Shown: positions 24,352 through 59,274 of the stretch, in pieces
Numbering within the stretch: the first letter of the stretch is position 1
Layout of the letters: each line of letters starts with the position of its first letter
Origin: Acidobacteriota bacterium
GTDB lineage: Bacteria > Acidobacteriota > CAIWXX01
DNA: 64,000 bases
Assembly (NCBI GenBank): GCA_040755995.1
Contig: JBFMAF010000034.1
Span: forward strand, 32,001 to 96,000
Direction: 5' to 3'
Notes under the pieces: model-generated
What the model saw: the letters and a program-made list of their open reading frames with translations, nothing else
The model's database searches: none
What the model was told of the DNA's origin: nothing
Program-made: the position numbers and the translations under genes

Positions 24352-24398
24352 GTGTTTGCAGCTCCTCTCGTTTTGGCGGCCGGCCCTTGGGCGCGAGC

Positions 24399-35133: not shown

Positions 35134-35157
35134 TGAAGTTTGGAGGTTAAGGGAGAC

Positions 35158-36294
35158 ATGGCATCTGTTCCAGTGTTCGCTCCATCCTCGACATTCCGTG
35201 ACGAGCTGCGGCGCCGGGGAGGCGAGACGGCGCTCCGGTGCTACCAGTGTGCGACATGTTCGAGCGTCTGCGAGCTGGCCCCCGCCGAAGCTCCATTTCC
35301 GCGTCGCCAGATGCTTTGGGCGCAGTGGGGACTGGCGGACCGGATAGCGGCGGACCCGTCGGTCTGGCTTTGTCACCAGTGCAACGATTGTACTCAGCGA
35401 TGCCCGCGAGACGCGAAACCTGGTGACGTGCTTTCCGTGGTTCGCGCGCTGACCATCGAGAAGCTGGCGTTCCCGCGGTTCGTGGGGAGCCTTGTCGGGA
35501 AGGTCCGTGTGACGTGGCCGTTGGTTCTCGGCATCCCCATCCTGTTCTGGGTCCTCCTGCTCATGGCGGTGAACGGCCTGCAGGTGCCGCAGGACTTCCG
35601 GGCGTACGAGCAGTTCGTGCCGCACTGGTTGCTGTACGCGGTCTATTTTCCCGTGGTGGGCTGGGTGGTATTGGCGAGCTGGGTGAGCGGCCGCCGATTC
35701 TGGTCGCTGCTTGGACTGGGGGCCTCGCGCAACGGATCCTTCCTGGGGCATCTATGGCCGGCGCTGATGGAGGTCGGCACGCACAAGCGCTTCGGCAACT
35801 GCACCGCTGCGCGTCCGCGCAAGATCGCCCACCTTGCGCTGCTGTGGGGCTTCGTCGGCGCGGCAGTGACATCGGGGCTTCTGATCATGGCGATCTACGT
35901 CCAGGGCATGACGCTCGACAACGGGCAGATGCCGCTCTCTCTGTGGCACCCGTACAAGATCCTCGGCAACATCTCGGCGGTATTGCTCGTTGTCGGTGGG
36001 GTGCTGCTGGTGGCGAACCGGTTGCAAGACGGAGTCCGCTCCGGTGCCTCGACAGCATTCGACTCGTTCTTCCTGACTGTTGTGGGACTCGTGATCGTGA
36101 CGGGCGTACTCACCGAAGCAGGGCGATTCGGATTTACTCCGGAGCTGGCATGCGCGCTCTACGTGGTGCACCTGGGTGTGGTACTCTGCCTGTTCGTCAC
36201 GTTCCCCTATTCCAAGTTCGCGCACATGCTCTACCGTACGCTGGCAATGGTTCACGCCAGGATGGCGGGCATCGTCTCACCGCGCGCCAAGTAG
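35158..36294 (+). CDS. qmoC: QmoC (ferredoxin plus heme-b membrane domain)
   Basis: CYQCATCSSVC, CHQCNDC..CP, six TM segments, PYSKFAH. Confidence 0.93.
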   Translation: MASVPVFAPSSTFRDELRRRGGETALRCYQCATCSSVCELAPAEAPFPRRQMLWAQWGLADRIAADPSVWLCHQCNDCTQRCPRDAKPGDVLSVVRALTIEKLAFPRFVGSLVGKVRVTWPLVLGIPILFWVLLLMAVNGLQVPQDFRAYEQFVPHWLLYAVYFPVVGWVVLASWVSGRRFWSLLGLGASRNGSFLGHLWPALMEVGTHKRFGNCTAARPRKIAHLALLWGFVGAAVTSGLLIMAIYVQGMTLDNGQMPLSLWHPYKILGNISAVLLVVGGVLLVANRLQDGVRSGASTAFDSFFLTVVGLVIVTGVLTEAGRFGFTPELACALYVVHLGVVLCLFVTFPYSKFAHMLYRTLAMVHARMAGIVSPRAK

Positions 36295-36368
36295 AGCGCT
36301 GCCCAGGTGACGACGCGACAATGCAATGAATCTCGCGAGATAATCTCAACGTAAAAGGAGGAGTACTC

Positions 36369-37637
36369 ATGAGTAAACTCGTACAACCGCATGGGAGTGC
36401 GGATCTGAAGGCTCTTCTGCTTCAGGGGAAGGAAGCGGAGGAGGAGAAGAAGAAGGCTGAGACGCTCAAGAAGGTCCCCATGACCAGCCGGGAAACCTCG
36501 GACTTGATCATGATGGCCATCGGAGCTTTCACGCCGCTGCCGGGGTTCATGGGCCGGGACGATTGGAAGGGCTGCTGCGAGAACTACCAGCTGCCGTCCA
36601 TGAAGAACCTGTTCTGGCCCATCCCGATCACGCTGTCGGCCGAGCAGGCGCTTGCCGATTCGATCAAGATCGGCGAGGAAGTCGGGCTCTGGGACACGGA
36701 GACCGAGGCCTATGTCGGGACGATGAAGGTCACCGAGAAGTACGGGATCGACAAGGATTACGAGTGCAAGCAGGTGTTCCGGACCACCGACAAGGCGCAC
36801 CCGGGCGTGCAGAAGGTCATGGAGCAGGCACCCGTCAACCTGGCCGGCCCGATCCGGCCGTTCTCGGAGTCCTACTACCCCGAGATGTTCTCCACCATCT
36901 ATCAGCGGCCTGCCGAAGCGAGGAAGGCCTTCGAGGAGCGCGGGTGGAGCACCGTGGCGGCGCTGCAGCTCCGCAACCCGATGCACGGCTCGCATGCATA
37001 CCTGGCGTGGATCGCCATCGAAGTGTGCGACGGCGTCTACATTCACCAGCTCGTCGGCAAGCTGAAGCCGGGAGACATACCGGCCGAGGTGCGCGTGAAG
37101 GCAATCGATGCGCTCGTGAACAAGTACTTCCGCAAGGAGCGCGTGATCCAGGGCGGGTACCCGATGGAGATGCGCTATGCCGGACCGCGTGAGGCGCTGT
37201 TGCACGCCGTGTTCCGCCAGAACTACGGCTGCAGCCACCTGATCGTCGGCCGCGACCATGCAGGTGTCGGCGACTACTACGGCCCGTTCGATGCGCAGAA
37301 GATCTTCCTGGAGATCCCGCACGGAGCGCTCGAGCTCAAGCCGCTGCCGCTCGACTGGACCTTCTACTGCTACGAGTGCAAGGGCATGGCGTCGATGAAG
37401 ACCTGCCCGCACGAGAGCAAGGCCGTGATCGACGAGAACGGCAACTACAAGGGCGGCGCCAGGCTCCTGCTCTCCGGCACGCTGCTCCGGAAGCTGATGA
37501 GCGAAGGGAAGCCCGTGCCCGAGGAGTTCAGCAAGCCCGAGGTCATCGCGATCCTGAACGACTACTACAACAGCCTCGAGAAGAAGGTGGAGATCAAGCT
37601 GCACGGATTCGCCACCGGCGAAGCCGGCAAGAAGTAA
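36369..37637 (+). CDS. sat: Sulfate adenylyltransferase, copy 1
   Basis: [33 protein letters not shown] motifs. Confidence 0.97.
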
Positions 37638-37668
37638 TTACCCCCTTTACCCTCGCCTAACCTTCACC

Positions 37669-37700
37669 AACCGGGGCCTCCAGGCCCCGGTTTTTCTTTT
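37669..37700 (+). terminator. Rho-independent terminator after sat copy 1
   Basis: AACCGGGGCC-TCCA-GGCCCCGGTT followed by a T-tract. Confidence 0.9.
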
Positions 37701-37789
37701 CGGCGGGGCCGTCCCAACCCTCGCATGCAGCTCTTCCACCGTGGCCCAGGATGGGCTGCACTCGCCCCCTCCCGACCCCTGCGCGAAAT

Positions 37790-37818
37790 TTGACAGGCGA
37801 CGTGCGCCCTGCTACGCT
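37790..37818 (+). promoter_or_regulatory. Sigma-70 promoter at the start of the inserted segment
   Basis: TTGACA-17 nt-TACGCT. Confidence 0.55.
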
Positions 37819-37916
37819 TCGCCCATGTTTCGCTTCCTTCATGTGCATTCTCAAACGCTGCAGGCCCGGATAGGTCGGGGAGGGACCTGGCCGATGACGG
37901 CCTGGACTCCCTGTAG

Positions 37917-38183
37917 TCACGTCTTCTTGCTGCCGGTGGCCACAGCGACGTCGATGGCCGCATCGACCACTCGAAGCCCGGGCCGACGATGACCACGGCC
38001 TGCATCAACGCATCGAAGGGGCGGTTCGTTCACCACGCGGCCCCGTTCCAATGCTTCACCGACACCCTTGGCTTCCAGGCTGGCGTGATGGCCAGGGGTG
38101 TGCAGGTCGGGAACGCGGTGCCCAGACTTCTCGGCGAGGTGGTGTCGAGGGTGACGAACGCAGCCGTGACAGCAGTAGGGTGA
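37917..38183 (+). pseudogene. 3' remnant of a C5 DNA cytosine methyltransferase
   Basis: In-frame GHSDVDGRID..PGPTMTTACINASKGRFVH...QVGNAVP parallels FSDVYGRMA..APTITTGCVNPSKGRFLH...IGNAFP of the intact Dcm at 44445-45500; N-terminal motifs absent. Confidence 0.75.
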
Positions 38184-38207
38184 TCAGATCTGACGACGGG
38201 TGGTCGG

Positions 38208-39422
38208 ATGGCGCAATGTCACTTCGAGGACATACTGGCGCGCTGTGCCCGAGAAAGAGACGAAAGCGCATTCTCTGATCTGATCGCCTTCTCCAAGGAG
38301 CGTCAGCTGTCCGTGGATCAGATCAGCCGTTTGGCCACGGTTCTTGCCGACTCGGGGGACAGGTTCAGCTCTCCACATCAGTGGCAGACTGCTGATATTG
38401 CCTCGACCGGTGGGCCAACATCTCTCTCCACAATCATGTCTCCACTTCATCTGCGCTGCCTTGGCTCTCATGTGATCTCATTGGGGGTCCCTGGGCGCCC
38501 GGCTGGCGCGGTAGACGTCCTCGCCCAGATTCCCCGCTACAAGGTGCACCTCTCAAGAGGTGACGCACAGGCGGTTCTGGCAGAGTGCGGCTACGTTCAT
38601 CTTGTTGCCGACAGTACTTTTGCCCCTTTGGACGCCGCCTTGTTTAGTTTCCGGCGCCGAACAAAGGCGCCGCCGGTAGGTGCCATCGCCGTTGCGAGTC
38701 TGCTGTCGAAGAAGCTAGCAGTGGGAGTTCGCAGTGTCGGGCTGGATGTTCGCGTGGGCCATCATGGGAACTTCGGTGCCACGCTGCCGGAAGGCAGGGA
38801 GAACTCGATCACTTTTTGCCGCACGGCTCGCAACCTTGGCATCCATGCGACCTGCTTCTTGACTGATGGAACGATGGCCTACCAGCCCTATGTCGGCAGA
38901 TCCGAAGCACTTCTTGCGATAAGGGCCTTGATCGACGGCACTGCCTCACAATGGCTCCTAGAGCACAACCATCTATGTCGGCAAATGGCCTTGACGCTGC
39001 GCGGGGGTTCAGAGCCAACGAGTGCACTCTCTCTCCGAGACGCCTTTACCGCCAACCTGGAAGCACAGGGGTCCAACTACACCAACTTCCTTGCGCAGGC
39101 AGGTCGCGTGGAAGCGGCACCTCGTTTTCCGATCCGAGCGCCGTTGAACGGCTTCGTGAGGATCGATTTGGGCACCCTCAGGCTCTTGCTGGGTAAGTGG
39201 CAGTCAGGCGGGGATTGCAGTGCATCCGAGTACCCAGACGCTTGTGGCGTGACGTTGGTTCGACAATACGACGAGTTCGTGCACACGGGGGACGTGATAG
39301 CCCTGGTACGATGCCCGCATGAGGCTGCTGCACAGGCCACCGAAGACCTCGCGCGTGCATTCGGGATATCCGACGTGCCACTGCGAGCCGCTACAACCGA
39401 GATCATCGAGTCAGTCGGATGA
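38208..39422 (+). CDS. Divergent thymidine/pyrimidine-nucleoside phosphorylase-like protein (NP-II fold)
   Basis: DIASTGG, DVLAQIP, FAPLDAALFSFRR, ASLLSKK, GLDVRVG align with DeoA/Pdp motifs; C-terminal PYNP_C-like segment. Confidence 0.8.
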   Translation: MAQCHFEDILARCARERDESAFSDLIAFSKERQLSVDQISRLATVLADSGDRFSSPHQWQTADIASTGGPTSLSTIMSPLHLRCLGSHVISLGVPGRPAGAVDVLAQIPRYKVHLSRGDAQAVLAECGYVHLVADSTFAPLDAALFSFRRRTKAPPVGAIAVASLLSKKLAVGVRSVGLDVRVGHHGNFGATLPEGRENSITFCRTARNLGIHATCFLTDGTMAYQPYVGRSEALLAIRALIDGTASQWLLEHNHLCRQMALTLRGGSEPTSALSLRDAFTANLEAQGSNYTNFLAQAGRVEAAPRFPIRAPLNGFVRIDLGTLRLLLGKWQSGGDCSASEYPDACGVTLVRQYDEFVHTGDVIALVRCPHEAAAQATEDLARAFGISDVPLRAATTEIIESVG

Positions 39423-42400
39423 ACCAACCAGGAGGCACCATGCTCAGGCAAGAGTACGCATGTTTTCTTCATCCGCGCAGCAAGGGCCAGAGCCTGGACG
39501 AGAAGTGCTCCGAGTGCGGTCTTCCATTCAGCTTTCCTCTGAGTAATGCCCCCGTAGAGATTGCTGGGCGGACCATCCGCCGAGGCATAAGCCGTGGCTT
39601 CTACGGCGCTGTATACGAGGCAGAGCATCGCACCATCAGGAACCGCACGTCCGCTATCAAGGTGATACCATTCGCCATCTACGCACCGGTTGAATCGGGA
39701 GGATACGGTAAGGACTTCTCGGCAGAGCTGCAACTTCATCAAGAGCTCTCGGCGATCGACTTGGTCGCAAGGCTTCTGGACGCCGGCGAATTCGAACTCT
39801 CCTTCAACAACGTCCGCATCCCTTGCCATTGGCTGGAGATGGAGTATGTTCGCGGCCCTACATTGAGGGATCTTATCGAAGCGGGTCCAGAGAACCCCCG
39901 CATCATTGCTCAGGTGGCATCCGATCTCTTCGACCTTGTGGAGCAGCTCCAGCAGCGCGGCAAGTTCCACAACGACCTCCATTCCGAGAATGTAAAGATT
40001 GTTCCCCTTGATCGCGGCCTGTGGCGAAGCAGTGCCATTGCCAAGAATGTTCAGACGAAGGTCCTTGATCTCGGCTCGGTCGCAGACGCATCGAAGTCCG
40101 CGCCAGCCCGGTGGGGGGATATCCATCAGGTCGCCAGCCACATCCTTTCACTCACGGAGGCTTACGAGCGGGCCATTCCGTCAGTGGAGCCGGGCGATCA
40201 GAGGATCGTCTCAAGACTGAGGCAGGCGGCTCAACACTGGTGCGCTGCGGATTGTGACTCGCGGCGCGCGCGCCCACATGACCTAAAGGCGAGCATCGCA
40301 GCCGCGTGCAGCTATGGCGCAGAGTGGTGGATGGAGTCTCACCGCCTTGATGCAATTGGTGCTCACATCAACGCTGTCACCATGCCCTCCCATAGGGCTC
40401 ATGCGCTCTTTTGCGGGCCAGCGGGATGGCGCGATGTAATGCTGGAATCGGGCACCACGTTGCTCACGGGAATGCGCGGCTGCGGCAAGACGATGCTGCT
40501 CCGTTCGATCCACTGGCAGGCCAGGGTATTTCAATACGATGGAGAGACAGAAGAGGAGGTCCGAGAGAGGGTCAACACCGACCGGTTTCTCGGTCTGTTT
40601 GTTTCCTGCGCAACGTTGCTTCGAGGCCCCCGGCCGACTCACATCCCGGAACTGGTGATGCATCGCCTGTTCCTTGCCTTCGCCCTCGAGGCAGTCCACT
40701 TCATCGAGACGTGTGACTTGCGGAAGATAGGATCGTTCGACGGCCATGGGTCTGCCAGGCTCTCAGACCTTGCAGCGCGTATCGCACCCTGGTACATAGC
40801 CCCGCAGGAACCAGCCGACCTCTACGCTTTGGAGGCGTCTATTCTCAGCGCGCTCAACAACGTCCCTTCGGAAAGTGGAGGGATAGCAGAGCTCAACCCG
40901 CGGGAGGCGTTCGAGGACCTCACCGCAGTGCTCCGATCCTGGGGCGATGTCGTCGGCAGCAAGAGATTGCTGTTCTTGTTGGACGATGTGTCGGTTCGCT
41001 ACATGTCCCGCGAGAATGTTGAGACTATCCTGAAGCAACTATGCTTCCAGAGCGGCATGTTCAGCTTCAAGCTCTCGACAGAAACACAGACACTGGCCCT
41101 GCATGCCCCAGGGGAGAAGCTTGCACAGGTTGGGCGAGACTATCAAGTCTTCGACCTTGGGGAGGAGGTATTCGCGATACTTCGGGACCGCAAGCAGAGT
41201 TGCGAGTTCTTTAAAGACATCCTGATGAAGAGGGCTGTCTCAACGACGAACCTGTCAGCCGCCCAGAGAGGTATGCCGGACATCCTCTTGGGACGGCTCT
41301 CTCTCACCGACATAGCAAGAGGCATTCGCGGGGAGTTCGGGAAGGGCAAGAAAGGCGAGAAGTTCCTTTACTGGAGCCTGGATGGACTTGTTGCGCTGTG
41401 CGTCGGCGATCTCGGCGACATCATCACCCTCTATGAGAGAATGGTCCAGCATGTAGCTCCCGAGCGACCCAGCGTGGCCCCCAACGTCCAGCACAAAGAA
41501 CTGATTGACTTTGCTGAAGCGCGGCTACGCGCACTCGCGGTGAGAGATCCCTGGCTGTACTCGCATGCAGTGGCTTTTGCCCAGGCAAGCAACCGGGAGC
41601 TGTTGGGCAGCACGCCGCAGCGGCTAAGGCAATATGCAGAGGTGGACGTGACCATCGGAATTGAGGCCGCGAACGAGCTCTTCCCCTTGGTCATGAAGCT
41701 TGTTGATGAAGGCGTCTTTGTGGCAACCGGCGCAACCTCCCGCATGAAATCGCGGGACGTGCTGCAGTTCAAACTCGCATTCCGAAAGATACTCGGGCTG
41801 ACCCACAGGATTCCCTTGAGCATGAGGGACCGCTTTGAGCTCCAGAATGCACGGCTCTCCTCATGGCTGAAATCGCCGAGCAGTGCCGTTCTGGAGAGCA
41901 GCCGTGCCGCTGATGAGACGGAGCCCGATGCAGAGCAGGAGCCGGAGCCTTCGGCGGTTGAGTTGCAGGCAGCTGAGCAGCAGCTGTCGCTCGCTTTCGA
42001 CGGGGAGAGCATGACCCGAGGGGATGCCCGAAAGCCCGATGAAGCACCTTCCATCGCGAGGGTGCTCCCTACTCCCCGTCTCCTTCACGACGTGACATCA
42101 CGACGGATACCACCCTCGCGCTGGGGTGCAGCACTGGCCAACTGCACTGTGGTTGCCGCCATCGGCTTTGAGGATAGGTCGATTGGGGCCTGGAAGAACC
42201 TGCTTGTCCGCACAGTCCCTAGACGTGCGGTCTTGCTGCGCTATCCTGACCCGGGTCTCATGAATGCAGCAAACGAGAGGATCCTGACATCGATGCTGAG
42301 GGAATCGACAGTTGACACCGTGATCGTCGACACCGGCAGTCTACCGTCGGATGATCTGGCGCTTTGCGTCGCGGCAGATGTCACGGGGTTGCTGGTCATA

Positions 42401-43120
42401 GATGTTACGTCGATGACAAAGGCGATTATCTTCGACTTGGTTCGGAAGGGATTGGTTGAAAGGCATCGCTTGGCGCTCTTGCATACGTGCGCCGATCAGT
42501 ATTTCCCAAGGGAGTCGGAGTTGTCAGACATCGCGGAGCAACTGACGATCAGCCTTGACAAGGTGCGCTCACCCAAGGGCCTAAAGGAGACCTTCGACGA
42601 GCTGGACAGGAGAGTCACCGGCACAAAGGGGCCATACGAATGCAATCAGATAGGAGAGACACACGCGGACCCCAGTCAACCCGTATTTCTTGCCGCGCTC
42701 ATTTCGCTCAAGCATGAACCTATCAGAGCGATACTCGAACAGGGCGCCGTCGAGCGAAGTGCGATGATCTATCCTGTCCACTCTGCGGGTAGGAGGGCGC
42801 GCCGTTCGGTGGTGGCGGAGCAACTGGCTCATTTCCTGGGCCAGATGTACCACGGAGATGCGATTCCCGCGAAATCTCTGGATCACGTAGCAGTGTATCG
42901 CGAACTGAAGGCGCTCCATCAAAGGTGGAGTCTCAGCTCGTCATACAATTTCGAGGTGGCATTGGCGGGGACCAAGATGCACACGGTTGGGGCGGCGATG
43001 TTCGCTGCGACAGCAGTGCCGTCGTCAGTGTACTATGCCAAGACGAAGGGGTTCGATGTCTCTGCATTCACGCAGGGCACGGGAGAGACACAGGCGCATG
43101 TACTGGAGCGGACGGAATGA
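39419..43120 (+). CDS. Multidomain protein: Zn-ribbon, Ser/Thr kinase, P-loop ATPase, C-terminal Rossmann-like region
   Basis: CFLH...CSECG; RGFYGAVY, AIKV, HNDLHSEN, DLG kinase motifs; Walker A GMRGCGKT, Walker B LFLLDD; ATGA overlap with upstream gene. Confidence 0.8.
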   Translation: MNQPGGTMLRQEYACFLHPRSKGQSLDEKCSECGLPFSFPLSNAPVEIAGRTIRRGISRGFYGAVYEAEHRTIRNRTSAIKVIPFAIYAPVESGGYGKDFSAELQLHQELSAIDLVARLLDAGEFELSFNNVRIPCHWLEMEYVRGPTLRDLIEAGPENPRIIAQVASDLFDLVEQLQQRGKFHNDLHSENVKIVPLDRGLWRSSAIAKNVQTKVLDLGSVADASKSAPARWGDIHQVASHILSLTEAYERAIPSVEPGDQRIVSRLRQAAQHWCAADCDSRRARPHDLKASIAAACSYGAEWWMESHRLDAIGAHINAVTMPSHRAHALFCGPAGWRDVMLESGTTLLTGMRGCGKTMLLRSIHWQARVFQYDGETEEEVRERVNTDRFLGLFVSCATLLRGPRPTHIPELVMHRLFLAFALEAVHFIETCDLRKIGSFDGHGSARLSDLAARIAPWYIAPQEPADLYALEASILSALNNVPSESGGIAELNPREAFEDLTAVLRSWGDVVGSKRLLFLLDDVSVRYMSRENVETILKQLCFQSGMFSFKLSTETQTLALHAPGEKLAQVGRDYQVFDLGEEVFAILRDRKQSCEFFKDILMKRAVSTTNLSAAQRGMPDILLGRLSLTDIARGIRGEFGKGKKGEKFLYWSLDGLVALCVGDLGDIITLYERMVQHVAPERPSVAPNVQHKELIDFAEARLRALAVRDPWLYSHAVAFAQASNRELLGSTPQRLRQYAEVDVTIGIEAANELFPLVMKLVDEGVFVATGATSRMKSRDVLQFKLAFRKILGLTHRIPLSMRDRFELQNARLSSWLKSPSSAVLESSRAADETEPDAEQEPEPSAVELQAAEQQLSLAFDGESMTRGDARKPDEAPSIARVLPTPRLLHDVTSRRIPPSRWGAALANCTVVAAIGFEDRSIGAWKNLLVRTVPRRAVLLRYPDPGLMNAANERILTSMLRESTVDTVIVDTGSLPSDDLALCVAADVTGLLVIDVTSMTKAIIFDLVRKGLVERHRLALLHTCADQYFPRESELSDIAEQLTISLDKVRSPKGLKETFDELDRRVTGTKGPYECNQIGETHADPSQPVFLAALISLKHEPIRAILEQGAVERSAMIYPVHSAGRRARRSVVAEQLAHFLGQMYHGDAIPAKSLDHVAVYRELKALHQRWSLSSSYNFEVALAGTKMHTVGAAMFAATAVPSSVYYAKTKGFDVSAFTQGTGETQAHVLERTE

Positions 43121-43147
43121 TGCGGCGGGCAAGTCTGAGGGGTAGTC

Positions 43148-43564
43148 ATGCCTGATGTCTTCGATAGGCAGAAGCGATCCGAGATTATGCGCAAGATCGG
43201 GCCCAAGGACTCGGCACCGGAGATGCGCGTCCGCTCGATCGTTCACCGCCTGGGCTACCGGTTCCGACTCCATGGTCGTGATCTCCCAGGCACCCCCGAC
43301 ATCGTGCTGCCCGGGCACCGCAAGGTCATCTTCATGCACTCCTGCTTCTTCCACGGCCATAGGGACTGCCCGAGGGCGACAATTCCGGCGACGCGCTCGG
43401 GGTTCTGGGAGGTCAAGATCGAGGGCAACGCCAGGCGTGACCGCGCGAGCCGCCGTAGGCTTAGGCGCCTCGCATGGGAGTGCCTGGTCATCTGGCAGTG
43501 CGAGATACGAAAAGGTACCGAAGAGCGGCTTCGGGCGAAGATCCGCAGGTTCCTGGAGGGGTGA
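43148..43564 (+). CDS. vsr: Very short patch repair endonuclease
   Basis: DVF..RS.IM, PE..VR, LPGTPDIV, HSCFFHGH, FW..KI..N..RD, IWQCE. Confidence 0.92.
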   Translation: MPDVFDRQKRSEIMRKIGPKDSAPEMRVRSIVHRLGYRFRLHGRDLPGTPDIVLPGHRKVIFMHSCFFHGHRDCPRATIPATRSGFWEVKIEGNARRDRASRRRLRRLAWECLVIWQCEIRKGTEERLRAKIRRFLEG

Positions 43565-43750
43565 AGGATGGGGAAGGGCATCTTCACGCCGGGCGCAACC
43601 GCCGCATGACGACATCCCATAGATCCGCTACCGCTTGACCGCAACGAACCCAACAAGTCCCGAGAGGAGGAGCGGCGACCGGATGTCCCGCTTCGCGGAT
43701 GCGGGGGGTGAGTCCATCTTTCGCGACATGCTCGCCGATCGCAGAGTCCG

Positions 43751-43805
43751 TGTGGCATACGGCTCAGACAAATTGACCCACTTTGCTCAGATAAACTGAC
43801 CCACC
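43751..43805. mobile_element. Orphan IS21-family-like terminus
   Basis: TG start followed by tandem 20-bp repeats GCTCAGAYAAAYTGACCCAC (43762, 43785), like IS21-family subterminal repeats. Confidence 0.55.
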
Positions 43806-43917
43806 TAACGGACGGCCTTTTTTGTTTCCAAGCAGCAACATCTGGGTCGAGTCTGGTGAGTGGTATATGTGTGGACGAATCCGGGTGGTCCGCATGCAGG
43901 GTGGGCGGAGGGGGACG

Positions 43918-44380
43918 GCGCACTTAGCGGATTGTTGACCGGGGATCTCGGAAGCAGATGACCGGGGGTTTGGGGAAACGTGACTGCGGGCGGTCACTTG
44001 GGGGCGAGACGGCGGTCAACAGTTGCGCAAACGCGTTGGGGGCCGCGTGGGACAGGGCGGTCATGCTCCCAGCTTTGAAGGAGGGAAAGGAATGAAGGCA
44101 TGGCAAGAAAGCGGCCATCCATCCGCCATGCACGAGACATTCTGCCACTGAGGCGCGAAGTCCCGGCTGGGTGTTCGAGAGACCGCCCGCAGCCAGCGCG
44201 AGGGTCGCGGCAAGCTCGTCAAGTACCTGCGCTGGCGCAGGCAGCGGAGGGTAGGGTGGTCGCTGCCGGAGGTGATCGCCCACGCCCAGCTGCAGCAGTT
44301 GCTCTCTTCCGCCCAGAAGCCTCCGCCGGTGGCCCCCGCCCGGGGGAGAGACTGGACGCTATTCAGGAAAAGCAACCCCG
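43918..44380 (+). pseudogene. Degenerate IS21-family left end plus frameshifted istA N-terminus
   Basis: Multiple TGACCGGGG/CGGTCA repeats, then RBS and MARKRPSIRHARDIL / LGVRETARS...KYLR...GWSLPE...QLQQLL, resembling the IstA N-terminal HTH. Confidence 0.6.
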
Positions 44381-44444
44381 CGTTGTGGAGCATAGAGCGG
44401 GGGCCACGCTCCGGACCACCATCGATTCAGCAGAGGAGCCCTGG

Positions 44445-45500: not shown

Positions 45501-45524
45501 TGTCCCTCGGAATCCACTCTCTGG

Positions 45525-47195: not shown

Positions 47196-47214
47196 AAGAC
47201 GTCCCTCCTCAATG

Positions 47215-51048: not shown

Positions 51049-51467
51049 TGCTTCTTCTCCCGATTCCTCCGAAGCCGACGAGGCGGCGGTGGTGGCAGCC
51101 GCAATGCCTTCTCCAGCCGGTCCACTGCCGCAAGAATCTCACTCTGAATCCGCACGAGAGTCGCCCGAGCCCGGCGGAAATCCCGATAGCGCAGCGTGAG
51201 CCGTTGAACCCGGAGACTGTCGGCAGGGGACACCGACCGCAAGCGCGTCTTGCCCTCCTCACTCCAGGTGATAACGTCGCTGACGTGTCGCGCCTCCTCA
51301 GACCTGGCGCAATGGCAGCCGGCCTTCCCGCACCGCGTGCGCAGCTTGTAGAGCGTCCCCTTGATCAACTCACGGGGTCGCAACAACGCCTCGATCAGGC
51401 GGCGATGCCGCTCGATCAGGTCGTGGAGCGTCTGCCTTTGACGGCTCGCATGTACCAAATCGGCCAT
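51045..51467 (-). CDS. DUF6788-like small protein accompanying the transposase
   Basis: GTL...RCGKAGCHC...H motif; ATGA overlap with transposase. Confidence 0.7.
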   Translation of the reverse strand: MADLVHASRQRQTLHDLIERHRRLIEALLRPRELIKGTLYKLRTRCGKAGCHCARSEEARHVSDVITWSEEGKTRLRSVSPADSLRVQRLTLRYRDFRRARATLVRIQSEILAAVDRLEKALRLPPPPPRRLRRNREKKQ

Positions 51468-51859
51468 TCTGGACCTCAGCCTTTATTCGCATTCTAGTAA
51501 TAACATAAAGATTCAACCAAGGCAACAAGAAAAATGTGAGTTCCGACGAATAACCCTCCCTAACTCGGCCGACTAGCCGCCAGGGAGCCTACCCCTCGGA
51601 AAACCGGCCCATCGCCGCATGTGGCCGCTGGGCGGCCCGCCCTCCGAGGTTCACGGCAGGATCGTGGAGCCGGCGACAGGAGCCCGGGTGACGCCACACC
51701 CTACTGTCTGAATCGCAGGGAAAGCATCCGAGAAAGGGAGAATGGACGGCCAATGCCGTCCAGCTGCCGAGCCTTCCTTGTTCCCATGTGTAATCCCTAG
51801 TTGGCGCCGCCCCTGGGGAACCTGGTACCGATCGATGATGTGCCAGCCTTCCTGTGGCG

Positions 51860-52098
51860 GCGTTCGACACGTTCTTCCTGACGGTGGTCGCGCTGGTGAT
51901 CCTGACAGGTGTCCTCACGGAGGGGGGCGACTTGCATTCACACCGGAGCTGGCCTGTGTGCTCTACGTGGTGCACCTGGGCGTGGTGCTCTGCCTCTTCA
52001 TCACGTTCCCCTACTCCAAGTTCGCGCATATGCTCTACCGTACGCTGGCCATGGTTCACGCCAGAATGGCGGGCATCGCGTCACCGCGCGCCAGGTAG
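51860..52098 (+). pseudogene. qmoC: Duplicated 3' fragment of qmoC, frameshifted
   Basis: Homologous to about 36055-36294 (AFDTFFLTVV...PYSKFAHMLYRTLAMVHARMAG); 1-nt loss in the G-run near 51925. Confidence 0.9.
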
Positions 52099-52166
52099 AG
52101 CGCTGCTGAGGATGGGACAATCCAACAAGTCTCGCGAGATAATTTCAACGAAAGGGAGGAGTACTC

Positions 52167-53435
52167 ATGAGTAAACTCGTATCGCCGCATGGGAGTGCGG
52201 ATCTGAAGGCTCTTCTGCTTCAAGGCAAGGAAGCGGAGGAGGAGAAGAAGAAGGCTGAGACGCTCAAGAAGGTGCCCATGACCAGCCGGGAAACCTCGGA
52301 CCTGATCATGATGGCCATCGGAGCTTTCACGCCGCTGCCGGGGTTCATGGGCCGGGACGATTGGAAGGGCTGCTGCGAGAGCTACCAGCTGCCGTCCATG
52401 AAGAACCTGTTCTGGCCCATCCCGATCACGCTGTCGGCCGAGCAGGCGCTTGCCGATTCGATCAAGATCGGTGAGGAAGTCGGGCTCTGGGACACGGAGA
52501 CCGAGGCCTACGTCGGGACTATGAAGGTCACCGAGAAGTACGGGATCGACAAGGAGTACGAGTGCAAGCAGGTGTTCCGGACCAACGACAAGGCGCATCC
52601 GGGCGTGCAGAAGGTCATGGAGCAGGCACCCGTCAACCTGGCCGGTCCGATCCGGCCGTTCTCGGAGTCCTACTACCCCGAGATGTTCTCCACCATCTAT
52701 CAGCGCCCCGCGGATGCGAGGAAGCTGTTCCAGGAGCGCGGGTGGAGCACCGTGGCGGCGCTGCAGCTGCGCAACCCGATGCACGGCTCGCACGCATACC
52801 TGGCGTGGATCGCCATCGAAGTCTGCGACGGCGTCTACATCCACCAGCTCGTCGGCAAGCTGAAGCCGGGAGACATACCGGCCGAGGTGCGCGTGAAGGC
52901 GATCGATGCGCTCGTGAACAAGTACTTCCGCAAGGAGCGCGTGATTCAGGGCGGGTACCCGATGGAGATGCGCTATGCCGGACCGCGTGAGGCGCTGTTG
53001 CACGCCGTGTTCCGCCAGAACTACGGCTGCAGCCACCTGATCGTCGGCCGCGACCACGCAGGTGTCGGCGACTACTACGGCCCGTTCGATGCGCAGAAGA
53101 TCTTCCTGGAGATCCCGCACGACGCACTCGAGCTGAAGCCGCTGCCGCTCGACTGGACCTTCTACTGCTACGAGTGCAAAGGCATGGCGTCGATGAAGAC
53201 CTGCCCGCACGAAAGCAAGGCCGTGATCGATGAGAACGGCAACTACAAGGGCGGCGCCAGGCTCCTGCTCTCCGGTACGCTACTTCGCAAGCTGATGAGC
53301 GAAGGCAAGCCGGTGCCCGAGGAGTTCAGCAAGCCCGAGGTCATCGCGATCCTCAACGACTACTACAACAGCCTCGAGAAGAAGGTGGAGATCAAGCTGC
53401 ACGGATTCGCCACCGGCGAAGCCGGCAAGAAGTAA
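52167..53435 (+). CDS. sat: Sulfate adenylyltransferase, copy 2 (intact ORF)
   Basis: 422 aa; I count 8 amino-acid differences from copy 1. Confidence 0.95.
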
Positions 53436-53466
53436 TTACCCCCTTTACCCTCGCCTAACTTTCACC

Positions 53467-53498
53467 AACCGGGGCCTCCAGGCCCCGGTTTTTCTTTT
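53467..53498 (+). terminator. Rho-independent terminator after sat copy 2
   Basis: Same hairpin and T-tract as 37669-37700. Confidence 0.9.
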
Positions 53499-53699
53499 CG
53501 GCTCATGAGGTGCCTGACCACAATAGGTCGTGCCCGATGTGTTCAGTGGTCTGGATGCGCTTCTTCTTTCCCCGCCGCATGACGCCCGTGCCTTGCTCGA
53601 GGGAAACGGCGAGGCGGTGAGGGGGAGACGCGGAGAACCGAACACCACCTCTTCACCGCGTGTCCGCGTCGCTGCGACTCCCTCTCTCTTCGTTCGTAT

Positions 53700-53825
53700 C
53701 GAAGCTCCGGGAAGGCCGTCTCGCTCGCGGTACCGGGTGCTGAAGCCTGCCGCCTCCAAGCAAGCAGCAAGCTGCTGGGCCAAACCGGAATCCTCTTCAA
53801 CGTGACTCGTGAAAACGTCTGGCAT
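53700..53825 (-). pseudogene. Truncated TIR-domain protein (N-terminus only)
   Basis: MPDVFTSHVEEDSGLAQQLAACLEAAGFST...RDGLPG matches the bacterial TIR_2 start, then similarity is lost. Confidence 0.65.
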
Positions 53826-53851
53826 CGGATATATCCCGCCGCTCGTTGTAC

Positions 53852-53914
53852 GCCCAACGCCGAGCATCAGCGGCACGAGGTCTTATCCGTGTCCGCTGGA
53901 CGCTCTTGTTCGGC
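53852..53914 (-). repeat. Integron attC site
   Basis: Minus strand GCCGAAC-AAGAGCGTCCAGCGGACACG...CGTGCCGCTGATGCTCGGC-GTTGGGC; 63 bp imperfect palindrome with R''/R' boxes. Confidence 0.8.
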
Positions 53915-54109
53915 ACGTCTTGCCCTGGCGGTCGTGGCTCGGCGGCTTATCTCCTCGATTGTGAGATCCTCGTCGAGGCCCTCTCGCCACTTTGTTTGGT
54001 CAAATGGTTCTCGCTGAATCAGCGCTACGAAACGCTCGGCTTCAATGTCGCCAAGATACCTAGCTAGGACCTGTAGCCCCTTCATACGGATCTCAGTGTC
54101 AGTAATCAT
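53867..54109 (-). CDS. Putative antitoxin of a PIN-type TA module
   Basis: MITDTEIRMKGLQVL..LGDIEAERFVALIQREPFD.TKWR; overlaps the end of the PIN gene. Confidence 0.65.
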   Translation of the reverse strand: MITDTEIRMKGLQVLARYLGDIEAERFVALIQREPFDQTKWREGLDEDLTIEEISRRATTARARRAEQERPADTDKTSCR

Positions 54110-54562
54110 AGCCTGCGCTCCTTGATAAACAGTATCGGGTCCGCGATGTTGATTGCCGTCACCCGAGGCTTGCATTTCAATATTCTGTCATCGGTTGTGA
54201 TGAAGTACTCGCATCCAGCGGCGATTGCGCAGGCCAGGTGCAAGGAATCGATCTTCGGAAGGCCCTCTTCATGCAGACTGCTCGCGTTCGCGAGCAGCTC
54301 GGGGCTCTCCTGGACCTCCAATTCAGCGCAGGCCCTCCAGACGCTAATCCGGCTCTTGCGTTCCGGATACGGGTTCCTGTCGTTCTCGTAATCCAGAATA
54401 TAAGACCAAACCCGGGATGCTTGTGACAAGCTGGTAATCCTTGCTGTGTTTATCCCACCAGTCCCGCGTCCATTTCGTGCGCGCGGCCATTTCCGGTTCG
54501 CTGCGGGTCTCGTAGTAGAAGCTCGGTATCGTCGTTTCGATGTAGACAAGCTGCTTCAGCAC
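54106..54562 (-). pseudogene. Chimeric, frame-disrupted PIN (VapC-like) toxin
   Basis: N-part VYIETTIPSFY..TRDWW and C-part WSYILDYEN...DSLHLACA..FITTD are in different frames and look like different PIN subfamilies; junction near 54415. Confidence 0.65.
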
Positions 54563-54716
54563 AAATCAGCCGCTGGCATTGAAAATCCGGTCAATCCGTC
54601 ACGCAACACTCGGGTGATACGGTTCGGCTCTTCTGCTTCCACCATAGCACCTCCTCTTGCGATGTAGTACATCCCGCGGTTTCATCGATGTCATGCTCTG
54701 CAAGTCAACCGGCCCG

Positions 54717-54780
54717 GCCCAACACCCCAGATCAGCGGCGGGCCGCGCAGCGGACCGTCCGCTGCAACCGGTTGTTAGGC
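54717..54780 (-). repeat. Integron attC site
   Basis: Minus strand GCCTAAC-AACCGGTTGCAGCGGACGGTCCGC..GCGGCCCGCCGCTGATCTGGGGT-GTTGGGC; 64 bp; the upstream gene's TAA stop lies in R''. Confidence 0.85.
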
Positions 54781-55452
54781 CGGAGGCTCCTCGCGCTCGA
54801 ACCTCGCGAGTTCGGCGAGGTGCCCGGCCGCCGATCGCAGTGCCCGACCCGAGAGGGCGTCCACCAACCGGCGGGCCCGTGGCCCGAGGTCAGGGCGCTC
54901 GACGTACCTGCGCGACAACAGGTGCCCGAGCGCGAGGAACGCCAGCCCGAAGACGACGTTCGCGATGAGCCAGGCAAGATCGATGCGGGCGAGCGCATCA
55001 ACGCCGGTCAGCGCCTCGAACAGAACCAGACCTGCGGGGAGCCAGGCTACCACGCCTCCGATCACTGCCCACTTGAGTGCACGGTACTCCACGAGCCTAG
55101 TGTGCTCGAGCTCGCGCTGGATCTCCATTACCGGTGCGCCGTAGTCGAGCTTGAGGCTGTTGACCAACAGGTAGGTGCACAGCGCGGTGATCGCGCCGGT
55201 GAGCACGGCAAGCGCGCCACCCACGATGGCGTAGCGCGGCTCGGTTACGTGAGCGGCGAGGACCGACATCGCGACGACGAGCATGGTGATGCCGAGCGCC
55301 ACCTCCAGCGCCCTCCACAGGACGTAGGGCGCGAGGGCGAAGCGGACCTTGCGCAGCAGCGCTTCGCGCAGAAGCCGCTGGTCGATGGCGACGCTCCGCT
55401 CCAGCATGGTGCCGTGCGCGGCCCAGGCTTCTTTCAAATCATCGAACTGCAT
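54775..55452 (-). CDS. Membrane protein, probable anti-sigma partner
   Basis: MQFDDLKEAW start, four TM segments, overlaps the 3' end of the sigma gene. Confidence 0.7.
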   Translation of the reverse strand: MQFDDLKEAWAAHGTMLERSVAIDQRLLREALLRKVRFALAPYVLWRALEVALGITMLVVAMSVLAAHVTEPRYAIVGGALAVLTGAITALCTYLLVNSLKLDYGAPVMEIQRELEHTRLVEYRALKWAVIGGVVAWLPAGLVLFEALTGVDALARIDLAWLIANVVFGLAFLALGHLLSRRYVERPDLGPRARRLVDALSGRALRSAAGHLAELARFEREEPPA

Positions 55453-55957
55453 GTGATCCTCCCGTGTTGCTCGCGCGCTGGTCCAACGCGACGCGCAGCT
55501 TGTTTTTGATGCGCAATAGTTTCGTGCCGACGTTTGACACGGAGATGCCGAGCACTTCCGCGATCGACGCGTGGTCGGTCCCGTCGAGGTAGAGAAGGAC
55601 GAGCGCCTTATCGAGCGCGCCCAGATCGTCGATGCAGCGCAAGAGGAGTTGGACATCCTCGTTGGGCTCGACGCAAGCTGCCGCGATGGTGATCGCGTGG
55701 GCGTCGAGCGACAGGTGCCCCTCCCGATGCCGCCGTCCACGGCGGTAAAACGAGATCGCGACGTTGAGCGCGATGCGATAGACCCACGTCGTCTCCTTGT
55801 AGCGCTCGTCGTACCGGTGGCGGTAGCGCCAAAGTTGCAGGGCGACCTCCTGAAAGACGTCCTCGCGGTCCGTCACGTCCCGGCAATAGGCGTAGGCGAT
55901 CTTGTGGATCAGCCGGGCGTGCCGCCGGATCAGGTCGGTGAACTCTTGGGCTTCCAT
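55439..55957 (-). CDS. ECF sigma factor (integron cassette gene)
   Basis: EDVFQEVALQLW, TWVYRIALN, IAEVLGISVSNVGTKLLR. Confidence 0.9.
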   Translation of the reverse strand: MEAQEFTDLIRRHARLIHKIAYAYCRDVTDREDVFQEVALQLWRYRHRYDERYKETTWVYRIALNVAISFYRRGRRHREGHLSLDAHAITIAAACVEPNEDVQLLLRCIDDLGALDKALVLLYLDGTDHASIAEVLGISVSNVGTKLLRIKNKLRVALDQRASNTGGSHAVR

Positions 55958-56100
55958 CGGGGGTATTATTCGCAGGCGCCCCTCGCCAGATCACAGGCTC
56001 AGTCGTTCTTTCTTCCGGCGCCCCGACGCAGGGGGCTGCTGAGCCCCGCCGCCTCCACGGACGGCCTGAAGAGAGCCCGCCTGCGCCGATCCCGCTATCG

Positions 56101-56268
56101 GCCTAACAATAATTAGACTGATCCGCATAAGATGCGGAACTACGCTTCCCTGCCTTGATAGCGCGTCGCTGATTCATCCGGCAGAATCGCGATAAGTCCT
56201 TCTGTTTCAGTCATTTGTGCCCCATGCTTTGGAATATCCTCCGTTCTTATGCGGATCGGCATAAGAAC
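56101..56268 (-). promoter_or_regulatory. Probable integron attI region
   Basis: Minus strand ...TCCGCATCTTATGCGGATCAGTCTAATTATT-GTTAGGC core site at the head of the cassette array, AT-rich, no attC-type partner arm; 13-bp inverted repeat GATCCGCATAAGA (56120) / TCTTATGCGGATC (56245). Confidence 0.6.
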
Positions 56269-56673
56269 CTCCTCGTTGCCTCAAAGTCCGTCAACCGGGC
56301 TGCGTAGGCCCCTGAGTTCCCCGTCACGCGGGGTGGCCGCTTCCTGGGGCGCCCGCCCGGGTTGCGCCGCGCGATGGCCCACCGAGTTCACCGGACGAAG
56401 CGAAGGGGCCACCTCAACCGGTTCGCCAGTGACGACGTCGACCGGGCATCCCCTCGGTGTCCGGCACTGTACGATGCTTCTCTTCGGGATGCCAGCGCCG
56501 ATCAGGGGTAGTCTTGATCTTCGCCACTCGTTGCGGCTCATATGGCACGATCACTCTCAACCGCCCCCTGCGTCCTGGATCAACTACTACAGCGCTAATC
56601 GCTGCGAACTCCCTCCATTCTGAACCGAGACGACGAATGTGTCAACAAGGCTTGCGCGTGCGCGTGCGCGCAC

Positions 56674-57035
56674 CCACCACGGCCCGTTCGATTCGCAGAA
56701 GATCTTCCTCGTGATCCGGCACGGCGCTCGAGCTCAAGCCGCTGCCACTGGACTGCACATTCTACTGCTACGAGTGCAAGGGCATGGCGGCGAGGAAGAC
56801 CTGCCCGCACGAGAGCAACGCGGTGATCGACGAGAACGGCAACTACAAGGGCGGCGCCAGACTCCTGCTCTCCGGCACGCTGCTCCGCAAGCTGATGAGC
56901 GAAGGCAAGCCGGTGCCCGAGGAGTTCAGTAAGCCCGAGGTCATCGCGATCCTGAACGACTACTACGACAGCATCGAGAAGAAGGTGGAGATCAAGCTCC
57001 ACGGTCACGCCACAGGCGCCGCCGAGAAGAAATAG
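56674..57035 (+). pseudogene. sat: sat 3' fragment, copy 3
   Basis: Homologous from YGPFD onward; 2-nt deletion near 56725 and several substitutions. Confidence 0.9.
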
Positions 57036-57065
57036 CCACCCTCTATACCCTTGCTACGCTTCACC

Positions 57066-57097
57066 AACCGGGGCCTCCGGGCGCCGGTTTTTCCTTT
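57066..57097 (+). terminator. Degenerate copy of the sat terminator
   Basis: AACCGGGGCC-TCCG-GGCGCCGGTT plus T-tract. Confidence 0.75.
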
Positions 57098-57149
57098 CGG
57101 TAGCAAAGTTCTTGACATCATACCCATTATGGGGTGTATCATTCCCAAT

Positions 57150-57755
57150 ATGGGAATGAGCAGGTCATCGGTGGGGATCGCTGACGCATTGTTCACCAAG
57201 GTGCAGCAGCGTGTGCTTGGGGTTCTCTTGGGAAATCCTGGCCGGACTTTCTACGCCAACGAGATCATCGCGCTCGCCGGGTGCGGCACCGGCGCGGTCC
57301 AGCGGGAGCTGGCCCGCCTTGCAGCGGCGAAGCTGGTGACGGTCACCCGCGTTGGCAATCAGAAGCACTACCAGGCAAACGCTGCCGCGCCTGTCTTCGA
57401 GGAGTTGCGCGGCCTGGTGCTGAAGACCTCCGGGCTAGCTGATGTGCTTGGTGCTGCGTTGGCACCGCTGGCGACGCAGATCAGTGCTGCTTTCGTCTAC
57501 GGCTCGGTGGCCAAGGGGCAGGACACGGCAGTGAGCGACATCGATCTGATGGTGCTGAGCGACACTTTGGCCTACGCCGATCTCTTTGTCGCCCTCGAAG
57601 GGGCCGCGAAACGGCTCTGTCGCCAGGTGAATCCGACGGTGTACTCTCGGCAAGAACTCGGCAATCGGATTCAACAGGGCAATTCCTTTGTCACACGGGT
57701 CCTGGCGCAACCCAGGCTCTGGTTGATCGGTGGGGAACGTGATCTCGGCGCTTGA
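57150..57755 (+). CDS. HTH-nucleotidyltransferase (MNT) antitoxin
   Basis: N-terminal wHTH (AVQRELARL); YGSVAKG...SDIDL nucleotidyltransferase motif. Confidence 0.85.
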   Translation: MGMSRSSVGIADALFTKVQQRVLGVLLGNPGRTFYANEIIALAGCGTGAVQRELARLAAAKLVTVTRVGNQKHYQANAAAPVFEELRGLVLKTSGLADVLGAALAPLATQISAAFVYGSVAKGQDTAVSDIDLMVLSDTLAYADLFVALEGAAKRLCRQVNPTVYSRQELGNRIQQGNSFVTRVLAQPRLWLIGGERDLGA

Positions 57756-58167
57756 GAACCTGTGCGGCCCAGGGAAACCGCTCAAGAAGGAACCGCCTGA
57801 TACCCAGGAATATCAGGGCCTGAGGCGGTCCGGATTGGTACGGCTTGCCGACGCCGGCAACACCGCCAACTCGCTCGAGAGCCGCTTCGACCTGGGCTAC
57901 AACGCGGCGCATTCCCTATGCTTGGCGGCGTTGCGCCGTCACGGCTATCGGGCGGTCAACCGATACGTCGTCTTTCAGGTGTTGCCGCACACTCTGGGCC
58001 TGGGGCCGGAGGTATGGCGCGTCCTGGCCAAGTGCCATGACCTCCGGAATCTCGGCGAGTACGAGGGCGACCTCGGGGTCGATGGGCGAATCGTAACCGG
58101 CCTGATCGCCGCCTGTCAGGCAGTGGCCGCCAGGCTGGACGCGCTGGGACCGCCGAGCCAACCGTGA
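57739..58167 (+). CDS. HEPN-like toxin partner
   Basis: Helical protein with YNAAH and RNLGEY (RxxxxY) motifs, overlapping the MNT gene. Confidence 0.7.
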   Translation: MISALENLCGPGKPLKKEPPDTQEYQGLRRSGLVRLADAGNTANSLESRFDLGYNAAHSLCLAALRRHGYRAVNRYVVFQVLPHTLGLGPEVWRVLAKCHDLRNLGEYEGDLGVDGRIVTGLIAACQAVAARLDALGPPSQP

Positions 58168-58425
58168 CCGCCGTTGGCCAGATCGAAATGCTGACGCAGC
58201 AGCGGGTGGTGGCGCTGTCAAGCGACTCGGCGGGCTAGGCAGATTCCTTGGGACTGTCTTGCCGCAACGGCGTCGCCGGGCCTGTCTTTGGGCCGTAGCA
58301 CTGCCGCCGCCCTTTATGCCGAGCTTCGCGAATAGATCTACGTGCGGTATCTCTGAGTACTGCGGCAGCAGGCCGCGCCCGCGGGCCTGATCGAGCATGG
58401 CGAGTATCTCGCCGAACTGCAGTTT

Positions 58426-59213
58426 CGATCCGGCCATTCTCGGAGCCCTACTACCCCGAGATGTTCGCGAGCATCTACCGGAGGCCTGCTGACGCGAGGA
58501 AACTCTTCCAGGAGCGCGGGTGGAGCACCGTGGCGCCCCTGCAGCTGCGCAACCCGATGCACGGCTCGCACGCATACCTGGCGTGGATCGCCATCGAAGT
58601 CTGCGACGGCGTCTACATTCAACAGCTCGTGGGCAAGCTGAAGCCGGGAGACATCCTGGCCGAAGTGCGCGTGAAGGCGATCGATGCGCTCGTGAACAAG
58701 TACCTCCGCAAGGAGCGCGTGATCCAGCGCGGGTACCCGATGGAGATGAGGTATGCCGGACCGCGTGAGGCGCTGGTGCACGCGGTGTTTCGCCAGAACT
58801 ACGGTTGCAGCCACCTGATCGTCGGCCGCGACCACGCGGGTGTCGGCGACTACTACGGCCCGTTCGATGCGCAGAAGATCTTCCTGGAGATCCCGCACGG
58901 CGCGCTCGAGCACAAGCCGCTGCCCCTCAATTGGACCTTCTACTGCTGCGAGTGCAAGGGTATGGCGTCGATGAAGACCTGCCCGCGCCAGAGCAAGGCC
59001 GTTATCGATGAGAACGGCAACTACAAGGGCGGCGCCAAGCTGCTGCTTTCCGGCACGTTGCTCCGGAAGCTCGTGAGCGAAGGGAAGCCGGTGCCCGAGG
59101 AGTTCAGCAAGCCCGAGGTCATCGCGATCCTGAACGACTACTACAACAGCATCGAGAAGAAGGTGGAGATCAAGCTGCACGGATTCGCCACCGGCGACGC
59201 CGGCAAGAAGTAA
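58426..59213 (+). pseudogene. sat: sat 3' fragment, copy 4
   Basis: Homologous from PIRPF onward, 5' part missing; many substitutions at conserved positions (e.g. IHQL to IQQL, QGG to QRG, CPH to CPR). Confidence 0.9.
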
Positions 59214-59244
59214 CACCCCCTCATGCCCTAGCTACACATTCGCC

Positions 59245-59274
59245 AACCGGGGCCCCGGACCCCGGTTCTTTCTT
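59245..59274 (+). terminator. Degenerate copy of the sat terminator
   Basis: AACCGGGG..CCCCGGTT plus interrupted T-tract. Confidence 0.7.

Follow-up and report, generated by a model that had tools for sequence, protein, structure and literature searches.

Arrays of islands integrated at tRNA genes duplicate the end of a gene around inserted DNA by means of a site-specific integrase acting at a fixed crossover site. In this study, we analysed a stretch of 64,000 nucleotides (the window; positions 32001-96000 of contig C34 in the Acidobacteriota genome G000), in which the gene sat is followed on the same strand by three further sat ends, each with different cargo behind it. The closest described systems are summarised here from the available portions of the respective papers. 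At rhs loci, a circle excised between repeats is proposed to re-enter by one crossover and to shunt the old gene end downstream, with exchange restricted to close relatives (Jackson 2009, PMC2935791). Effector-immunity arrays of the Vibrio type VI secretion system undergo sequential displacement by homology-facilitated illegitimate recombination (Kirchberger 2017, PMC5361080), and integrase-less transfer hotspots between core genes are ascribed to double recombination in two flanking core genes (Oliveira 2017, PMC5635113). The element e14 at icd/icdC duplicates a gene end around its insert, and deletion between the copies gives a chimeric gene (PMC13626634). In these portions, the origin and growth of integrase-less hotspots are left open, and the rhs model leaves the first circle unexplained.

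As judged from its sequence, the sat locus appears to work like rhs displacement and is not an rhs array. As at rhs loci, an intact gene is followed by co-oriented 3' fragments of variable length with genes between them, and the copies derive from other lineages; by contrast, the host encodes sulfate adenylyltransferase with a conserved end and is not a polymorphic toxin gene with exchangeable tips. An rhs gene gains novelty in its own variable toxin tip, whereas at sat the tail stays conserved and what is new is the unrelated cargo beyond the terminator; furthermore, the hosts here are core metabolic genes (sat, metH-like, asnB, cdhD and hydrogenase/complex-I-like subunits) at 24 loci in one genome (PMC2935791). 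The type VI arrays may be alike: recombination takes place in a conserved anchor on the upstream side, an illegitimate join closes the far end and old material moves downstream, without an integrase and with possible later spread by ordinary recombination; those arrays lose the old effector and keep immunity genes under selection, whereas sat keeps hundreds of anchor-gene bases as a direct repeat (PMC5361080). The hotspots combine high accessory-gene turnover beside a core gene, which sat may share, with the lack of a mobile element and recombination in the flanking core gene, but they replace content and leave no duplicated gene end, whereas sat adds content and keeps tails (PMC5635113). The gene end duplicated around an insert recalls e14, which has a site-specific integrase and a fixed crossover site (PMC13626634); neither of these was found at sat.

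The sat stack does not look like an integrase-targeted island: no cognate tyrosine or large serine integrase was found at its edge, no fixed site was seen, and no tRNA or tmRNA gene is present in the window. No report of sat as an integration site, or of genome-wide tails at housekeeping genes, was found in a literature whose coverage left out most subscription journals. What is new here is how deep the stack is and how densely tails occur across the genome; the process itself is known from toxin loci, and the finding does not amount to a new enzyme or machine. Repeated additive gene gain, carried out by the homologous recombination of the cell itself, likely left the three extra sat ends as scars, and we consider it probable that tails are displaced by host homologous recombination, without a dedicated integrase, at core genes.

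Four co-oriented sat ends

Repeats were found by self-BLAST of the window and then aligned. Exactly four co-oriented sat ends (+) were obtained, and they are the only sat matches anywhere in G000. Relative to copy 1, the repeat of copy 2 spans 1650 bp at 94.2% identity (36055-37704 versus 51860-53502), that of copy 3 spans 428 bp at 89.7% (37276-37703 versus 56676-57100) and that of copy 4 spans 851 bp at 91.8% (36850-37698 versus 58426-59274). All of them stop 61-67 nt beyond the stop codon, just past a terminator-like hairpin (fold z of -6.4, -6.0, -3.1 and -2.2 in copies 1-4) and its T run. The 5' limits differ, lying at qmoC codon ~306 (copy 2), sat codon ~303 (copy 3) and sat codon ~162 (copy 4). 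The sat of copy 2 is an intact open reading frame (ORF) of 422 aa preceded by a ribosome-binding-like site, and the qmoC 3' piece before it has a 1-nt deletion; additional qmoC or qmoB remnants are absent ahead of copies 2-4. An earlier note, made from the letters of this DNA, had described the four ends with their terminators, the full second copy behind a qmoC fragment, the different 5' ends and the different cargo after each copy. The alignments bear this description out, and the 5' ends may partly reflect erosion by deletion.

Differences among the copies are mostly synonymous. The ratio of nonsynonymous to synonymous divergence (dN/dS) is 0.08 between copies 1 and 2 (dS 0.129, dN 0.011) and 0.15-0.25 in the remaining pairs. 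Because these ratios are so low, the copies must have diverged as working genes, starting as working alleles of different lineages rather than as a duplicate left to decay. Decay was measured as changes at residues invariant in seven outgroup Sat sequences, and these number 0, 1, 8 and 13 in copies 1, 2, 3 and 4, respectively; frameshifts occur in copy 3 and in the qmoC piece of copy 2. Copies 3 and 4 thus decayed after diverging. The earlier remark that the distal copies are more decayed needs correction in that decay is not monotonic with distance, copy 3 being more diverged than copy 4.

All eight invariant-site changes of copy 3 fall in codons 304-351 and none in codons 352-421 (Fisher p 5e-4), and the 13 changes of copy 4 are scattered along its whole length. 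In copy 2, synonymous divergence (pS) is 0.37 in the qmoC part versus 0.12 in the sat part (p 2e-5), and identity to copy 1 is 85% in the qmoC piece, 80% in the intergenic part and 96.5% in sat, with the last 148 nt identical at 147 positions (99.3%). The sat tails are therefore mosaics.

An independent sample (runs X7 and X8, which are one sample available as contigs only) holds a relative that is 92-96% alike at qmoC-sat. One X7 contig joins the integrase remnant of cargo B (at 56663) to sat at the start of copy 3 with 22 letters between them, the same as in the window. In this relative, sat is also joined to foreign sequence at positions 36393 and 36855, the tails are of several kinds, and the sequence after the terminator differs from the window. 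The depth rises from one qmoC contig at 8x through 11.8x and 16-17x to 19-22x towards the sat 3' end; since the sample is mixed, several organisms could account for the depth steps on their own, but not for the junctions. With the copy-3 junction and further partial sat ends present in this independent sample too, the stack is unlikely to be an assembler artefact. In runs X1, X2, X4, X5 and X6, sat is covered by nothing but short or distant pieces, and these runs were left out for this gene.

Displaced gene ends across the genome

The earlier note had proposed sat as an accretion hotspot, but the pattern is not peculiar to this gene. Among 160 related sat loci from metagenomes and genomes, none has a second sat end, with at least 5 kb downstream available in 92 and at least 9 kb in 76, a reach that falls short of the 14 kb at which copy 2 stands here. 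G000 itself was scanned for direct repeats (at least 100 bp, at least 80% identity, 0.3-40 kb apart) that include the stop codon of an ORF 200 aa or longer and whose partner is not a full paralogue. The raw count comprised 34 host genes, with the repeat downstream in 29 and upstream in 5; after filtering, 24 loci had a downstream tail (about 3 per Mb) versus 3 with an upstream one (p 5e-5). The rows removed were two opposite-strand overlaps (C23:90228 and C23:261370), a transposase-fragment array (C55:230605), two rows on C34 that were merged with that of sat, copy 4 where it counted as a host by itself, and one member of a pair of C23 paralogues. The Rhs-like arrays of C3, C16 and C24 stand outside the count. 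Since 24 G000 loci show the pattern and none of the 160 other sat loci has a second end, sat is not special as a site of displaced tails.

The 24 loci have median values of 307 bp for the repeat, 88.6% for identity (range 82-99%), 4.0 kb for the gap that holds the cargo, and 0.24 for pN/pS. Host genes in the 20 regions scanned include an AcrB pump, asparagine synthase, CdhD, hydantoinase B, a complex-I/hydrogenase flavin subunit, an MMPL protein and a GH94 glucan synthase; one further host is, on our own reading of its sequence, presumably metH. The cargo comprises BREX, type I and XhoI-type restriction systems, Mrr and toxin-antitoxin (TA) pairs, as well as TonB receptors, lipases and peptidases. 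The same rule gave 0 downstream and 1 upstream case in 2.40 Mb of six control genomes (7.4 expected, P 6e-4); each control stretch covered 400 kb around sat in a long contig from another family, with genes called by a slightly different program, and the enrichment is therefore indicative only. Of the 16 repeats that reach 300 bp, 13 diverge more in their 5' third than in the middle one (p 0.02). Additional host pieces stand upstream of several tails; deletions therefore erode tails, and a 5' end does not always mark an entry point.

The youngest case is asnB (C41:11242-17237, L208), where a 1224-bp tail of 99.4% identity surrounds an XhoI-type restriction-methylase pair. About 90 nt from the methylmalonyl-CoA-mutase-like gene on C13 are joined to this tail in frame at a 4-of-5 microhomology, which is an illegitimate join, and the mutase piece hints at cargo that moved from another host gene. 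A complete BREX system (BrxA, B, C, PglX, PglZ and BrxL) lies at C33:74124-91547 (L205), between the metH-like gene and a 1120-bp, 88% copy of its end. The GH94 glucan synthase of 2751 aa (C4:18105-58300; L191, L192) has displaced pieces on both sides, with 3' pieces downstream around Mrr and DUF5131, and 5' pieces upstream around a type I restriction system.

Two further kinds of array were observed. At C55:221953-240318, six decayed co-oriented copies (89-94%, pN/pS 0.6-1.1) of a piece that we take to be an IS110 transposase alternate with small cargo and two integron-integrase remnants; this looks like a similar stack, on a mobile gene rather than a core gene. Long Rhs-like genes with orphan tips occur at C16:1-17156, C24:189155-200869 and C3:151870-158154, and by their look they resemble the classical form of tail displacement.

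Taken as a set, 24 tails of graded age, one readable illegitimate join and one stack three deep form a natural series for additive gain at core genes. Displaced tails inflate the counts of sat and other marker genes and break short-read assemblies at these genes. They also flag sites of defence systems, such as BREX behind the metH-like gene and restriction systems behind asnB and the glucan synthase.

Proposed host recombination and the rival explanations

According to the mechanism proposed here, DNA of a relative carrying the sat 3' part, the terminator and its downstream genes would recombine into the resident sat, whereby a working sat is retained and the old tail is shunted downstream behind the new cargo. 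The first tail would require one homologous crossover and one illegitimate join, directly or via a circle. Thereafter, a module composed of a sat end, cargo and a dead tail would have sat homology on both sides. It could thus be excised as a circle that re-enters through a single crossover, or arrive as linear DNA with two crossovers, and would add to the locus instead of replacing content. At its 5' edge, the dead tail would travel and age with its cargo, the 3' part would be refreshed, and later deletions would erode the tails. Entry by natural transformation may be considered plausible, and comEC, dprA and mutS are present in G000. Following the earlier note, we infer that segments may be excised and that TA modules may stabilise them; one TA pair in cargo B is itself broken. 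The 24:3 downstream polarity, the allele-like divergence, the mosaics and the junction shared with X7 count for host recombination. Repeated homology-driven addition, as the earlier note had proposed, agrees with the low dN/dS, the lack of an intact recombinase and of a shared motif, and the relative's junction, but it is not peculiar to sat.

Several observations weigh against this reading. The greater divergence of copy 3 than of copy 4 (dN versus copy 1 over shared codons, 0.053 and 0.033) means that a strict newest-first stack is not matched. A test for mosaicism among copies 1, 2 and 4 reached p 0.056; the comparison of the 5' third with the last third gave 12 of 16 repeats (p 0.09), and alignment edges inflate the 5' excess. 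The X7 join at 36855 lies 5 nt from the start of copy 4 and has other upstream letters than copy 4. The genes comEC and dprA are common (10 and 11 of 14 control genomes) and are no proof of competence. The circle, two-arm and anchor-plus-illegitimate routes are not distinguishable here, with no event or donor seen, and erosion also explains the variable 5' ends and would mask an original integrase site.

This last point bears on the possibility that successive site-specific integrative elements with long gene-restoring tails, like e14 at icd, entered at sat and later lost their integrases, with erosion and gene conversion making the ends differ. The geometry is that of icd/icdC (in the available portion of PMC13626634), an integrase remnant abuts copy 3 at a junction common to the relative, and the genome has 20 matches to the tyrosine recombinase family PF00589. 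The remnant, by contrast, matches an integron integrase (with a homologue on C36) beside an attC-like cassette array, which is a different chemistry; the 24 loci lie at unrelated host genes, and only at C36 does a PF00589 match stand between gene and tail. No PF00589 match is present on C34, and large serine recombinases (PF07508) have none in G000, the search not including PF00239 resolvases. The earlier impression that no integrase is visible thus holds for intact tyrosine recombinases on C34, but not for the deleted integron integrase at about 56280-56665. Inspection by eye found no shared motif at 29 tail junctions, the cargo is small, and phage or conjugation families are absent among 131 proteins scanned from the 20 regions. 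A single fixed crossover site for successive sat insertions was not seen among the three different 5' ends, where erosion could hide an original site. Overall, such elements are an unlikely source of the stack.

Local tandem duplications, possibly driven by an insertion sequence and followed by decay of one copy and later cargo insertion after each terminator, would fit the IS4-like element about 320 nt before copy 2 and the near-identical last 148 nt of copies 1 and 2. A purely decaying duplicate is expected to show a branch dN/dS near 1 instead of the observed 0.08-0.25; in addition, the cargo is not duplicated, no transposase ORF precedes copies 3 or 4, and the 24:3 polarity is left unexplained, which makes this origin very unlikely. 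Chaining by the assembler of sat alleles from co-occurring strains or species would likewise give allele-like divergence. The genome is probably a metagenome assembly, as its 3% contamination estimate indicates, and a search for its reads found none (best share of words 0.06), which leaves the junctions without a spanning read. Against this, copies 3 and 4 are dead, unlike the working alleles of live strains, and the tails are truncated and eroded by internal deletions; with the independent sample added, chaining is highly improbable. Lastly, the copies might be maintained as a device, with copy 2 providing a second expressed Sat and the silent tails feeding variants to copy 1 by gene conversion. 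The intact copy 2 with its ribosome-binding-like site and dN/dS of 0.08, and its 3' end homogenised with copy 1, speak for such a role. The damaging changes in copies 3 and 4, the same scars at unrelated genes, and promoter-like matches before copy 2 at chance level (3 found versus 1.9 +/- 1.4 expected in the promoter scan) speak against it, and we find it barely credible.

Host recombination, as preferred here, could be extended to a lineage-wide, integrase-free and self-propagating island system that serves as the main route of gene gain, with dead tails as second homology arms, defence and TA cargo stacked behind core genes, modules hopping between hosts, and a high rate tied to missing DNA polymerase I. 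We regard this extension as doubtful. None of the three same-family genomes (G000, G001 and G002) has a match to the DNA polymerase I family, and a link between missing polA and tail displacement is speculation. Ku end joining and loss of MutS were considered as causes of the tail rate and rejected, given that Ku was not found in G000 and mutS is present.

Cargo and neighbouring genes

The features of the stack and its cargo are listed in Table 1. The self-BLAST revealed no duplicated cargo. In cargo A, the thymidine-phosphorylase-like gene overlaps the kinase and ORC-CDC6-like ATPase (38208-43120), and together they resemble a nucleotide-linked defence module. A short repeated motif (43770-43810) between vsr and the methylase, without an adjoining transposase, resembles what we take to be an IS21-like element end. 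The right end of the IS4-like element lies near 51542, as deduced from the relative's contig. A second copy of this element was not found in G000, and it is probably multi-copy in the X7 relative, because the element (49100-51542) reaches 48x in run X7 versus 8x for the relative's single-copy qmoC.

Table 1 Features of the sat stack, its cargo and the adjoining genes (positions in the window)
Feature	Position	Strand	Remarks
qmoC, intact	35140-36294	+	NCBIfam NF038018 over cut-off; last 240 nt inside longest repeat
sat copy 1, 422 aa	36369-37637	+	Final gene of aprBA-qmoABC-sat run; Pfam PF01747 and PF14306; NF003166
Terminator-like hairpin, copy 1	37669-37692	+	Fold z -6.4; repeat stops at 37704
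Cargo A, 14.2 kb	37705-51859		Between copies 1 and 2
Thymidine-phosphorylase-like (nucleoside-phosphorylase-like) gene	38208-39422		Cargo A
Kinase/ORC-CDC6-like ATPase, 1233 aa	39419-43120		Cargo A; PADLOC CARF6 STK-AAA, E 4.5e-210
Vsr	43148-43564		Cargo A
C5 methylase	44445-45500	-	Cargo A
HerA	45525-47195	-	Cargo A
NurA-like	47215-49011	-	Cargo A
IS4-like transposase	49390-51048	-	Cargo A; DUF6788 partner 51045-51467 (-)
Copy 2	51860-53502	+	Frameshifted qmoC 3' piece, intergenic part, intact sat 52167-53435, terminator 53467-53490
Cargo B, 3.2 kb	53503-56675		Between copies 2 and 3; integron remnant
Broken PIN-domain pair	about 53870-54560	-	Cargo B
attC-like hairpin	54714-54782		Cargo B; fold z -5.0
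Cassette partner, 225 aa	54775-55452	-	Cargo B
Cassette ECF sigma	55439-55957	-	Cargo B
attI-like site	near 56105		Cargo B
Integron integrase, internally deleted	about 56280-56665	-	Cargo B; adjoins copy 3
Copy 3	56676-57100	+	sat codons ~303-422 and terminator; frameshift
Cargo C, 1.3 kb	57101-58425	+	MNT-type nucleotidyltransferase about 57147-57755, partner 57730-58167; PADLOC PDC-M05A/B
Copy 4	58426-59274	+	sat codons ~162-422, terminator 59245-59267; frame open
mazF-like toxin with small upstream ORF	59397-59959	-	After copy 4; toxin 59397-59744 (PF02452), ORF 59741-59959

Cargo B has the parts of an integron, namely, an attC-like hairpin, a mobile cassette and an integrase gene as a deleted remnant; the attC-like and attI-like sites were assigned with what we presume to be the consensus. 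The ECF-sigma cassette was found on separate contigs in three of four runs (X2, X5 and X6), with loose ends at the attC-like site. The integrase (56095-56670; homologue C36:325560-327150) runs in the same direction as the cassettes and has a long N-terminal extension; the window gene is missing about 1 kb internally, and the C36 copy has an in-frame stop. The cargo C partner has no Pfam match, so that its HEPN label, taken from the earlier note, is presumptive.

G000 comprises 7.74 Mb in 56 contigs and is 99.8% complete. Rfam matches at E 0.1 were absent from the part searched (34000-64000). Genomes of the same genus are absent among the 41 searched; the same-family genome G001 has a single sat (74%) split into two matches, and the closest Sat proteins come mostly from uncultured Acidobacteriota. 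Protein identities to the control stretches, with medians of 40-48%, gave no placement of the organism. The window carries a dissimilatory sulfur pathway with dsrAB, dsrC, aprBA, qmoABC-like genes and sat. A divergent minus-strand cluster at 18411-26072 holds dsrA, dsrB, a dsrN-like gene, dsrC, a siroheme synthase and an oxidoreductase that we take to be dsrL-like.

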